Below, in pieces: positions 14,627 to 58,632 of a stretch of DNA of 64,000 nt. The notes beneath the pieces are model-generated. The model was not told the DNA's origin. It searched no databases and saw only the letters and a list, made by a program, of their open reading frames with translations. Position 1 is the stretch's first letter; each line of letters starts with the position of its first letter. The translations under genes were made by a program, and so were the position numbers. The stretch is taken from assembly GCA_013239625.1 (NCBI GenBank), contig MU053754.1:124001-188000 (forward strand), read 5' to 3'. This DNA is from Lama guanicoe (lineage: Eukaryota).

Positions 14627-14816
14627 GGGGGGAGGGTATAGCTCGGTGGTAGAGGGTGTGCTTAGCATGCACAAGGGCCTGGGTTCAATCCCCAGGACCT
14701 CTGCTAAGGAATAAATAAATAAATAATCCTAATTACCTCCACCTCGCCCCCCAAAAAACCAAAAAACAAAGCCGAAAAAAGCTTTTAAAAAAAGACCTAA
14801 ATAAATAACAAAATCT

Positions 14817-14847
<31 letters not shown>

Positions 14848-14869
14848 CAGAAAAAAAAAAAAAAAAAAA
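14627..14869 (+). mobile_element. vic-1-type SINE with long compound A tail
   Basis: GGGGGGAGGGTATAGCTCGGTGGTAGAG...GGGTTCAATCCCCAG, then cctaattacctcc and a ~50-nt polyA. TSD aaagaaca at 14616-14623 and 14867-14874. Confidence 0.93.
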
Positions 14870-15790
14870 GAACAAATGGAGGGCCAAAGAGGTGCATTAC
14901 AGAAGCAGTGAAGAACTGTGTAAAGCCAAAATATGGATGTCATTCTTATGAATACAGCACGTGGACAAAAGACCTCTCCTCCAGCCATCCTTACTGCCCA
15001 GCAAAAACTCCATGAAGAGCATGTTGGGGGAAATCGGATGTGTGCATGTTTTTGTTAAATAAAACGCTGTATAAGCCAAGACATAAAGTGTTAGTCTCAG
15101 GGCAGAAACGCCCAGCCAGGCACAGTGTGGTGACATTACTTTTTGCAGGCAGTTTCTCTTACTTACATCGTGTGTAGTTGGGTAGAGTCTTCAGCACCAG
15201 CTGAAATGAAGCTGCATGCACATTTGCAGAACCTTCCTATGACATGTCTGCAAGTGCTGGTTTTCTGACTTAAAGTGTTAAGACTTTTATTCCCTGTAAA
15301 TGTCAACGTGGTATCAGTGATGCAGGGAAAGGTTTACAGTTGTGAAGTTTTCAAAACCTTCAGTTACAAGGCTCAAGGAAACAGTTACAAGTGAAGATAT
15401 TTCTTCCTAGGGAAAGGGAAAAAAAAAATAAAAAAGAAAGAACACATTTAGTTAGGAGGTTCTCCTGATACCCAAGAATTATTTTATTGAACCCACTTCT
15501 AATACATAAGAGGTGCATGTGCATTTTTGTGTTTGTACTTTCTGTCCCAGATTGTGAGCAAAAATGTCTTCTAATTCAGTCTCTTGCTAAAAGGTTAATG
15601 TCCCATTTTTTTAAAGTCATCGGGCAGGACTCATTGGCTTCCGATACGGTAAATAAACTGCTGGTCCTGGAAAATGTTCCCATGAATGTGGTCTCAGGAA
15701 CGGTCGTGAAAACGGGAGTCCTTAGGTGCTGTGGACAGAAAGGTCTTTTAGTTCCATGTTAGTTCCTTCCTAACACACTCTCTCTCTCTC

Positions 15791-24620: not shown

Positions 24621-24767
24621 GGTTTGTTTTTGTTTTTGTTTTTGTGTTTTTTATAGGGGGGAGGTAATGAGGGTTATTTATTTATTTTTGATGGAGGCCC
24701 TGGGGATTGAACCCAGGACCTCGTGTATGCTAGGCATGTGCGCTACCACTGAGCTCTACCCTGCCCC
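24621..24767 (-). mobile_element. vic-1-type SINE
   Basis: ggaggccctggggattgaacccaggacctcgtgtatgctaggcatgtgcgctaccactgagctctaccc. Degenerate TSD aagtgacaactggtt / aagtggccgctggtt. Confidence 0.9.
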
Positions 24768-24893
24768 AAGTGGCCGCTGGTTTGGACAGCTGGTTAGGAC
24801 GGCTGGTTAGTGCCCCCTTCTAAAATAACAAGGTTGAGGGTCAAACACAGTGCGTGCTGGTGGGTGTCTCTACCCACAATCCAAACCCTAACC

Positions 24894-25573
24894 CTGGAAT
24901 CTGTCTTTTTTTTTTTTTTTGTAATTTTTGTTGGGGGGGAGGTAATTAGGTTTGTTTATTTATTTATGTATTTATTTATTTTGGATGGAGGTGCTGGGGA
25001 TCGAACCCAGGACCTCGTGCATGCTAGGCAGACACTCTACCACAGAACTATACCCTCCCCGCTGGAATCTGTCTTTATTTTTTGTAATTTTTGTTGGGGG
25101 AGAGGTAATTAGGTTTGTTTATTTATTTATGTATTTATTTATTTTGGATGGAGGTGCTGGGGATCGAACCCAGGACCTCGTGCATGCTAGGCAGACACTC
25201 TACCACAGAACTATACCCTCCCCGCTGGAATCTGTCTTTATTTTTTGTAATTTTTGTTGGGGGAGAGGTAATTAGGTTTGTTTATTTATTTATGTATTTA
25301 TTTATTTTGGATGGAGGTGCTGGGGATCGAACCCAGGACCTCGTGCATGCTAGGCAGACACTCTACCACAGAGCTATTCCCTCCCCGCTGGAATCGCTCT
25401 TTTTTTTTGTTTGTTTGGTAATTTTTGTTGGGGGAGAGGTAATTAGGTTTGTTTATTTATTTATGTATTTATTTATTTTGGATGGAGGTGCTGGGGATCG
25501 AACCCAGGACCTCGTGCATGCTAGGCAGACACTCTACCACAGAGCTGTACCCTCCCCACTGGAATCTGTCTTT
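24894..25573 (-). repeat. Tandem array of four vic-1 SINE copies, unit = TSD + SINE (168/163/163/171 bp), closed by a fifth TSD
   Basis: ctggaatc(tgtcttt) starts at 24894, 25062, 25225, 25388 and 25559. Each interval holds a near-identical SINE sharing private variants (ggatcgaaccc, ctaggcagacactctaccacag). Confidence 0.96.
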
Positions 25574-26250: not shown

Positions 26251-26376
26251 AGGGGGAAGTTAGAGCTCAAGTGGTAGAGCTCATGCTCAGCATACACAAG
26301 GTCCTGGGTTCAATCCCCAGCACCTCCTCTAAAAATAAATAAATTAATTATCTCCCCTCACCAAAAAAAAAAAAAA
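26251..26376 (+). mobile_element. vic-1-type SINE (GCTCAAGTGG variant)
   Basis: agagctcaagtggtagagctcatgctcagcatacacaaggtcctgggttcaatccccag plus A tail. TSD gagtgatggg at 26241-26250 and 26377-26386. Confidence 0.93.
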
Positions 26377-27456: not shown

Positions 27457-29163
27457 GCTACATGGCACCGTGAATTCGGATCTCTGCCTGCTGACCCCCG
27501 GTGACTCTGAGCCTTATCCCACCAGATGGGGTCTTCGGAGCAGCAGCATGGGCATCCCTTGGGGCTTGTGAGGAGCACAGAACTTGGACCTGGGGGATCA
27601 CAACCTGCATTTGGACAAGACGCCCTGGGCGTCTGTGGGCCACGCAGCTCCGACCTCTGCCCGTTCAGAGATCCGACCACAATGACAGGACTTATTTCTT
27701 AGGGTGCGTTCTTTTGTATTTAACCACATTGTGAGAGGTTTCCAACATTCTGTTGAGAAAATAAATCTTTCAGCTTCACCCCGGTTGTAGACTGTCTCTG
27801 AAACCTGACCTATTTGAAGCGCTGTTTGAATAGATGTAATTCACGTGGTCTGTTTCACGGACGGCAGATCTGTTCCTGCGGGAGTGACGGGAACCTTCCT
27901 GTGATCCAAACCGACTTCAGCCCGACTCTTGGCATTTTCCCTTTCAGGCTCTCTTCTCGGTGAGCGTTAATCCAGGCAGAGCCGGCCAGCAGCTGTTCCA
28001 CAGGAGTGATGCCAAGATGAGAAGTTGGAGAGTATCAGACATTTATAAAACTGCGTCAGTATCCTCCATTTCATCATGGAAACCTGTCCTCTTCCTGAAG
28101 TCTCTCTCTCTGTCTCTGCCTCTTGTCAGCTGGTGGAGTTTATTATCCTCTGAATCCAGCCAGCCTCTCCTCCCTTTGCCAACTTCTTAAACCCGGAGTG
28201 ATGGCCATTCATTGACAGCTGCTCTGGGGAACTGGTGGGCATGTTAATCACTGCAGCTTCTTTCCTCTCTGCCTTCTGTCGCCTTTAGAAGACTCTGTGC
28301 CGTGCTTTCCCGCCCAGATCCTTGATGTCACCATCAGCAGTAGTCACCGTAATAGTAGTGTGGTCAGTCCCTGTTCTTATCCTGTGCGAGATGTTACGAG
28401 CTCAGATTTCCCCCCCACCCTTCAGTTTCGTCTTCTCCATTCACTACTGCACCGACTGGGCAGTTTAGCTTCTAACTATGCTCTCAAGCATCCTGATTGT
28501 GAAAGGTTCAGCGAAAATGCTGCCTTTACCTAGCATTTCAAGAGCTAGCATATTCCTAATGGTAGTTTCCTAGGGGCAAACCCAGATAGATGTCTTGAAT
28601 AAAAGCAAACTGACTGCAGCTCAATGAGTAAATGTGATGAGTAATTCGGGTAAATTTGGGATTAATCTATTGAACAAAAATGGCTGCTAGTGCATCGAGA
28701 GGAAACTCATTTGATATGAAATTATCCTATGATTTCAAATATTGTAAACTTCCTGCTGAATTTTTTTTGCACTAAACAACTGGTGTTGCTTAAATCATCA
28801 CGTTTATTAAAAATAGAAACCAAGAGTTACTAACATTTACTTAAAGTAGAAACCAGAGAGTTACTATGATGAAGAGGACTGGTCCTTTCGAGGTGGAGGT
28901 CCTGTTCTATGTATGATGATTGAAATAGACAAATATACAAGGTGCAACTTGTTGGAAACGCATCTTGGATGCGTTCAATGAAGACCGTGGCTGAAATGAG
29001 TGCTTCTGAGTACCCGTGGATGGAAAGTGGAGTCACCAGGCAGATTCAGATTATAGCACAATCAGAGATAAAAATATTTACGACTTGTCTACATCAAAAC
29101 ACAACAGTAAAGGAATGAGAAGGCCAGTTAGAGAGTTGGAGAAAGTTGTTGCAACGCATATCT

Positions 29164-29274: not shown

Positions 29275-29346
29275 CTTCAGTGGTAAAGTGTGTGCTTGGC
29301 GTACGCAAGGTCCTGGGTTCAATCCTCTGTTAAGGTGGGAAAAAAA
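29275..29346 (+). mobile_element. Truncated vic-1-type SINE head
   Basis: cttcagtggtaaagtgtgtgcttggcgtacgcaaggtcctgggttcaatcc. The normal 3' part is absent. Confidence 0.7.
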
Positions 29347-35593: not shown

Positions 35594-36272
35594 TATTTTT
35601 TTAAATTGAAGTACAGTCAGTTTACAATGTTGTGTCACTTTCTAGTGTACAGCATAATGCTTCAGTCATACATGAACATACATATGTTTGTTTTCACATT
35701 CTTTTTCACCATAAGTTACTGCAAGATATTGAATATGTGCTGTACAGTAGGACCTTGTTGTTTATCTGTTTTATATGCAGTAGTTGGTATCTGCAAATCA
35801 CAAACTGCCAATTTATCCCTCCCCCCCACCCTGGTAACCATAAGTTTATTTTGTATGTCTGAGTCTGTTTCTGTTTTGTAAGTAAATTTGTTTGCCTTTT
35901 TTTTTTTTTTNNNNNNNNNNNNNNNNNNAGATTCTGCATATAAGTGATCTCATATGGTATTTTTCTTTCTCTTTCTGGTTTACGTCACTTAGAATGACAT
36001 TCTCCAGGAGCATCCATGTTGCTGCAAATGGTGTTATGCTGTCGGTTTTTATGGCTGACTAATATTCCATTGTGTATACATACCACATCTTTATCCAGTC
36101 ATCTGTTGATGGACACTAAGGCAGTTTCCATGTCTTGGCTATAGTGCTGCTATGAACACTGGGGTGCAGGTGTCTTTTTGAAGTAGGGCTCCTTCTGGGT
36201 ACATGCCCAGGAGTGGGATTGCTGGATCCTAGGGTAAGTCTATGTTTAGTCTTTTGAGGACTCTCCATACGG
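35594..36272 (-). mobile_element. Camelid L1 3' end spanning an assembly gap
   Basis: 3'UTR at 35594-35910, N gap, then the ORF2 end (agattctgcatataagtg...catccatgttgctgcaaatgg...cccaggagtgggattgctggatc...tttgaggactctccatac). Confidence 0.88.
35911..35928. other. Assembly gap (18 N)
   Basis: Run of n following a poly-T tract. Confidence 1.
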
Positions 36273-58142: not shown

Positions 58143-58632
58143 TTGTCGAAAGCAAGTTCGTGCCAGTGTGTGATGATGCACTGTGAGGCCAAACAAACTG
58201 AAACGTCAGAGTTTGGAGCACAGATGTGTTTATTGCCGGGCTGAGCAAGGAGAAAGGCGTGGCTGAGGCTCAAGGAAGCCCTGAACTCCCCTGTGGGTTT
58301 CAGCAAAGCATAATTAAAAGCCAGGTGAGGGGCTGCGGGTGGGGGGTGTCTCAGGATATGTGATCAGTTCGCGCACAATTTTCTGATTGGTTGATGGTTG
58401 ACGTGGAGGGAAGAGGGTGGTCAAAACCGTCAGCCTCTAGGCACCAGAAGGTCTCGGGGCCACGTGCTCTCCATTGTTCAAGTACTTAATTCCTTCCCTT
58501 TGGTGGTAATTTTTAGCATCTGGAAAACTCAGGAGATATAAACTCAGGAGATAATAAACTCAGGAGTTACAGCAGAGGATATGAGGAAGGAGTCTGTCCC
58601 TGGAAGGCCCCCCAGGGTCCTGCTCAGTTATA
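58143..58632 (-). mobile_element. Cetartiodactyl ERV1 solo LTR (MER41-like, name tentative)
   Basis: gtgaggccaaacaaactgaaacgtcagagtttggagca...gtttattg (polyA signal on minus)...ctgattgg (CCAAT on minus)...agggtcctgctcagttata terminus. Confidence 0.78.

Follow-up and report, generated by a model that had tools for sequence, protein, structure and literature searches.

A tandem array of four whole SINE units joined by copies of one target-site duplication in Lama guanicoe DNA

Four head-to-tail copies of one SINE, each opening with the same target-site duplication (TSD) and followed by a closing TSD copy, form a tandem array in the window, that is, in the whole 64-kb stretch of Lama guanicoe DNA that was analysed. 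The locus probably started as a SINE insertion, after which the whole TSD-to-TSD segment was duplicated at the DNA level, a three-unit array was formed, and a recent crossover added unit 2. The array is a new instance of known processes, the ingredients of which (direct-repeat seeding, TSD-joined dimers and SINE multimers) have each been described.

Structure of the array

The array occupies positions 24894-25573, and its four units measure 168, 163, 163 and 171 bp (Table 1). TRF applied to the array returned a period of 163, 4.0 copies, a 94% match and a score of 1186, and the repeat is far beyond chance. The exact TSD 15-mer occurs four times in the 64-kb window, every time within the array; the fifth TSD copy, which opens unit 4, departs from it by two adjacent changed bases. 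Five TSD copies therefore bound four units (n + 1 TSDs for n units), all of them equal in length, and the two outer copies (24894-24908 and 25559-25573) match at 15 of 15 positions. Coordinates, lengths and the TRF result are in agreement with the earlier note, which had described four head-to-tail units with a TSD at each start and a closing TSD. Its statement that the copies have one common TSD, and not a distinct TSD each, is borne out by the four exact 15-mers and the two-base variant, and the three patterns of sequence sharing that it listed (units 1 and 2; the tail of units 2 and 3; units 2-4) were each found again in the units. The word minisatellite, also used there, is loose for a 163-bp period present in four copies.

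Unit 1 carries the family-like state after the start of the C-run and has a derived head base in common with unit 2, while unit 4 combines its two-base TSD change with a longer, interrupted tail and two private head changes. In a scan of the window for periods of 90-419 bp with a threshold of at least 85% identity over 80 nt, no other tandem array was detected; the only other row of the scan was the adjacent SINE, at an offset of 294.

Table 1 Features of the array and its terminator candidate; the four units start at 24894, 25062, 25225 and 25388
Feature	Coordinates	Strand	Basis
Outer TSD, SINE 3' side, 15 bp, same as closing TSD	24894..24908	-	Sequence match
Unit 1 SINE: tRNA-Ala-like head, AT-rich body, unbroken A tail	24909..25061	-	
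Unit 2 (TSD + SINE), zero private bases	25062..25224	-	Unit comparison
Unit 3 (TSD + SINE), one private head substitution	25225..25387	-	Unit comparison
Unit 4 (variant TSD + SINE), 5'-most in SINE sense	25388..25558	-	Unit comparison
Closing TSD, SINE 5' side; L1-endonuclease-like target	25559..25573	-	
Perfect period-163 stretch	24939..25372	n/a	24939-25209 = 25102-25372, 271 bp
First TTTT downstream of array on SINE strand, candidate Pol III terminator	24822..24825	-	

Identity of the element

Read on the minus strand, each unit consists of a tRNA-like head, an AT-rich body, a C-run and an A-rich tail. ARAGORN called tRNA-Ala(AGC) in three of the four units, the Rfam tRNA model matched all four, and the Pol III A and B boxes could both be located, the A box with one change. 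The L1 endonuclease cuts at TT/AAAA-like targets. On the minus strand, the TSD with its flank gives a TTT/AAAG target, and this target, the A-rich tail and the 15-bp TSD, which lies within the 10-20 bp range of L1-type TSDs (PMC12350158), are the hallmarks of an L1-mobilised element. The same element occurs elsewhere in the 64 kb (18 BLAST hits, corresponding to 17 loci), and it is simple in structure (head plus A-rich tail), interspersed and abundant in the window. It is presumably vic-1, the name used in the earlier note. The element fits the SINEBase entry of vic-1 as a simple SINE of camels (PMC3531059), and it is best termed vic-1-like.

The 12 ARAGORN and 13 Rfam tRNA calls in the window all coincide with SINE heads, the top-scoring one (59.8 bits) being the head at 1122-1193, and the Rfam search of the window gave nothing but these 13 tRNA-like heads. 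TTTT is absent inside the array on the SINE strand, and Pol III starting from unit 4 would read all four units, ~735 nt, to 24822-24825. However, Pol III activity of the units is doubtful because the A box is changed in all of them. Another SINE of the window, at 14629-14875, has a long compound tail, in which a run of ~50 A interrupted once is followed by a candidate TSD; this tail may reflect a second insertion or tail expansion.

Common descent of the units

The heads of the units are 97-100% alike (97.4% over 76 nt for units 1, 3 and 4), whereas the 91 pairs among 14 other window copies have a mean identity of 81% and a maximum of 92%, and none of the 91 reaches 95%. This comparison set comprises those 14 of the 17 other loci that have near-complete heads, with the partial hits at 29276, 48449 and 61063 left out. 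Such a difference argues that the units share an ancestor at the DNA level. At 9 of 70 head positions, all four units differ from the consensus of the 14 other copies, and each unit has one further head difference from this window consensus. Three of the nine shared differences are absent from all 14 other copies and the other six are present in 2-7 of the 14, so the earlier claim of private variants absent from the other SINEs of the window stands for the former and falls for the latter. Among the shared changes are one base in the A box and one in the B box, both seen in 0 of the 14 others, and two CpG-type sites in a decayed state. A 12-mer following the C-run is present in the four units and nowhere else in the window. 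Head identity, shared differences and this unique 12-mer together support the common descent and DNA-level amplification proposed in that note. We infer that the shared head changes are post-insertional, as their appearance suggests, and the common ancestor of the units would then be much younger than the insertion; the shared bases were judged against window copies, and a young subfamily elsewhere in the genome may carry such bases.

Two other views of the insertion were rejected. A young insertion, as could be read from the perfect outer TSDs, is at odds with the distance of the units from the window consensus (14%, against 3-16% for the other copies), and 4 of the 14 other copies also have perfect candidate TSDs (10-13 bp, obtained by a crude search). 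Transposition of a ready-made multimer from elsewhere does not agree with inner TSDs that are the same as the outer ones.

Mosaic structure and age of the units

The 141-bp bodies of the units contain five variable sites. Unit 2 is equal to unit 3 up to body position c, followed by unit 1 from c onwards, for every c from 18 to 126, and its TSD and tail are identical to those of unit 3. Unit 2 is thus an exact unit-3/unit-1 recombinant, and a single exchange accounts for the mosaic: one unequal crossover, in which two three-unit alleles paired one unit out of register, would have generated unit 2. The further rounds of unequal exchange or conversion invoked in the earlier note can therefore be reduced, for the mosaic, to one crossover. 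A similar derivation of unit 3 from units 4 and 2 was rejected, since no crossover point fits a simple recombinant of these two. Given the 271-bp perfect repeat (Table 1), unit 2 is either of recent origin as an allele or, with lower probability, was added in assembly.

The opening 15 nt of the SINE hold four of the five variable body sites (p = 0.013 in a post hoc scan), and 3 of these 15 bases distinguish units 1 and 4. Between the junctions of units 3 and 4 there are 4 differences in 30 sites, and units 1, 3 and 4 have three different tails. The clustering of variable sites at the SINE start, together with the 4/30 junction differences, suggests that the unit centres are being homogenised while the junctions drift.

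At an alternative substitution rate of 2.2e-9 per site per year, units 1, 3 and 4 would have diverged ~6-7 Myr ago. The 6 or 7 substitutions among these three units correspond to ~2.6-3.0 Myr (95% range 0.9-6.2) when dated with the rate obtained from PMC8605555, which is 5e-9 per site per year. The age of unit 2 would be < ~1.8 Myr or < ~4.2 Myr, depending on which of the two rates is applied. Because the unit centres seem homogenised, these ages are minima for the trimer.

Formation of the array

The history favoured here would begin with one tRNA-Ala-derived SINE inserted by L1-type target-primed reverse transcription, which left the 15-bp TSD and the anatomy still observed at the locus. The SINE would then have aged, either in single copy or in an array kept uniform by homogenisation. 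Duplication of the TSD-to-TSD segment at the DNA level would most likely have occurred when the two TSDs, with the adjoining A/T run, mispaired, and a second exchange would have produced the three-unit array now represented by units 1, 3 and 4. The recent crossover between three-unit alleles that added unit 2 would have fallen within the central 108 bp, and the likeness of the unit centres, in contrast to the drifting junctions, is probably maintained by conversion.

Mispairing of the TSDs is the simplest route to the first duplication and most likely the one taken. Since homologous crossover usually needs more than 15 bp, slippage or microhomology repair would account for the first step. Of 7,276 human tandem repeats of TE origin, 300 have been attributed to seeding by direct repeats of 5-20 bp (PMC3389668, section 3.4), and TSD homology is named as a substrate in a review (PMC9659126). 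One detail counts against the proposed history: in front of units 2 and 3 the match to the closing TSD runs on into the flank by one base, to 16 bp, an extension not expected from a clean crossover within the TSD, and the junction of unit 4 is without that base. The extra base fits neither TSD mispairing nor a double insertion cleanly; it may be a tail substitution, the mark of a template-switch breakpoint just outside the TSD, or a footprint of reverse transcriptase.

The first dimer or trimer could instead have arisen by insertion of a second SINE into the same TSD, where the endonuclease site had been restored, with conversion and unequal exchange later overwriting the centres, although we judge this unlikely. 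Same-site double insertion is known to leave a TSD at the junction (PMC5932611), an anatomy equal to that expected of TSD mispairing, and later conversion would hide any difference between the two. On the SINE 5' side the target site is still present. The tails differ, and the divergence of units 1 and 4 at the SINE start is near that of unrelated copies; the three tails and the 4/30 junction differences are also what would be expected of independent insertions followed by conversion. Besides, SINE multimers are common in rodents and bats, and the accessible text of PMC8466645 leaves their origin open. However, the nine common head differences and the junction-adjacent unique 12-mer would need near-complete conversion across ~81% identity, and the TSDs are all equal in length. 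Moreover, any in-situ model derives the unit-3 and unit-4 junctions from a single one, and these two have diverged to the same extent as the heads, so that the differences at the ends need no cause other than time. We consider it very improbable that the array arose in a single event in which the L1 reverse transcriptase copied the SINE, jumped to the target overhang, copied the TSD, by which its T-ended primer would be restored, and re-primed on the SINE poly(A), giving a TSD-spaced concatemer that was later homogenised, and enlarged by unit 2, through DNA exchange. The plus strand of the window would then be the first-strand cDNA, each junction would recreate the priming end, and copying of one base past the nick would account for the additional flank base at the unit-2/3 junction (the chance of this is ~3% by a rough estimate based on one independent junction). 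Three different tails are consistent with such iterative priming, and L1 ORF2p makes template-jumping concatemers in vitro (PMC10830420). On the other hand, the shared changes that look post-insertional stand to the unit-specific ones at ~9 to 1, which requires long-lasting homogenisation to be added; the unit 4 junction is without the extra base, and a genomic precedent was not found in the accessible text of the literature searched. If this route were real, [TSD-SINE]n-TSD arrays could arise without recombination; if it were also general, mammalian SINE multimers would have a third mode of origin, and satellites could be seeded in this way.

The possibility that the biological array has three units and that unit 2 was added by assembly expansion has little probability in our estimation. 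Unit 2 has zero private bases, its 271-bp perfect repeat is not spannable by shorter reads, and an 18-N gap at 35911-35928 suggests a scaffolded assembly; yet a recent unequal crossover predicts exactly the same pattern, and assemblers usually collapse such repeats instead of expanding them. The private bases in units 1, 3 and 4 and the two junction types show in any case that the whole array is not one copy expanded. An artefact comprising the whole array, for instance concatenation by the assembler of alleles of a single SINE, is scarcely credible, as two types of head-TSD-tail junction and three distinct units are impossible to obtain from two single-copy alleles. Under the favoured history of DNA-level duplication followed by a recent crossover, the locus may vary in copy number, and such polymorphism, as implied by the VNTR status proposed in the earlier note, is plausible because unit 2 carries zero changes. 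The array is most likely neutral.

Comparison with known tandem repeats

El-Sawy and Deininger are said to have reported tandem Alu insertions in 2005. In the accessible text of PMC4448676, PMC13103737, PMC12840619 and PMC3415434, no precedent was found beyond the citing of tandem Alu insertions. In its workings the array resembles the direct-repeat-seeded tandem repeats of the Haber and Louis model, treated among TE-derived tandem repeats by Ahmed and Liang 2012 (PMC3389668). In these, n units are likewise enclosed by n + 1 short direct repeats, the segment between the repeats gains copies by slippage, conversion or unequal crossover, and a TE-derived unit expands in situ. Their flanking repeats are mostly 7 bp in the accessible text, whereas here the direct repeat is the 15-bp TSD of the insertion itself and the unit is an entire element; the words TSD and target site are absent from the main text of that paper. 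The tandem dimers of McGurk and Barbash 2018 (PMC5932611) likewise consist of complete head-to-tail elements with the target site at the junctions and expand by unequal exchange. These dimers, from Drosophila, are described in the accessible text as independent insertions, and the 97.4% identical heads of the array units argue against independence, unless later homogenisation made them alike. Old locus-specific changes common to all units point to duplication or thorough homogenisation.

Mammalian SINE multimers likewise contain full-length tRNA-derived SINEs arranged head to tail and amount to 40% for B2, 49% for Dip (up to eight units) and 11.5% for Ves (PMC8466645). The accessible text of the same source leaves the origin of B2 multimers between insertion into the tail and dimeric templates, and identical units with a host TSD at each junction, as in the array, are not described in it. 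The sSat repeats of squamates (Vassetzky et al. 2023, PMC10702118) are similar in that SINEs form tandem arrays in place, with copy number varying between orthologues. However, an sSat unit never reaches the full length of its SINE, and a TSD is unmentioned in the accessible text, in contrast to the four copies only of a TSD plus whole SINE found here; classification of the array as sSat was rejected on this ground. The literature search, with most subscription journals outside its coverage, returned no TSD-spaced whole-SINE array in camelids, and El-Sawy and Deininger 2005 and the supplements of PMC3389668 and PMC8466645 may contain such cases, in PMC3389668 perhaps of whole Alu elements.

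The array captures, in readable form, the change of an interspersed repeat of a mammal into a tandem one, and a few bases suffice to reconstruct the order of events. It suggests a screen for SINE multimers that have a host TSD at every junction and shared locus-specific changes, which could measure the contribution of DNA-level duplication versus reinsertion among mammalian SINE multimers, a point left open for B2 in the accessible text of PMC8466645. If polymorphic, the array could serve as a length marker, and no function is evident. It also calls for caution in the scoring of SINE presence/absence and in the use of tRNA callers, which count such units as tRNA-Ala genes.

Genomic surroundings

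The 6 kb surrounding the array were found in 20 of the 24 listed runs (contigs; 4 organism codes, 7 studies) with word shares of 0.77-0.89, a measure that says nothing about the array itself, and a metagenome scan with the left flank plus TSD gave 0 matches. In the window, no protein family scored above the Pfam cut-off among 298 of the 341 stop-to-stop frames of at least 62 aa; SINEs, simple repeats, the array and the N gap accounted for most of the frames left out, which also included the last three of the window. The one Pfam match obtained (17.4 of 25 bits) was below the cut-off and was rejected.

Two telomere-type hexamers at 24884-24895 adjoin and overlap the left TSD, and this doubled hexamer is the only one on either strand of the window. 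With the G-runs nearby, these hexamers form a G-quadruplex-like sequence on the minus strand, which may be due to chance. A SINE on the same strand lies at 24633-24766, 127 bp to the left of the array, and a SINE on the opposite strand at 26253-26344, ~700 bp to the right, is 82% complementary to each unit over 74 nt; inverted SINE pairs around the array could form hairpins or double-stranded RNA and might thereby play a part in any instability. Short tandem duplications with a period of 13-33 bp occur at 2621-2674, 28803-28866, 58525-58566 and 24776-24810, the last of them located between the neighbouring SINE and the array.
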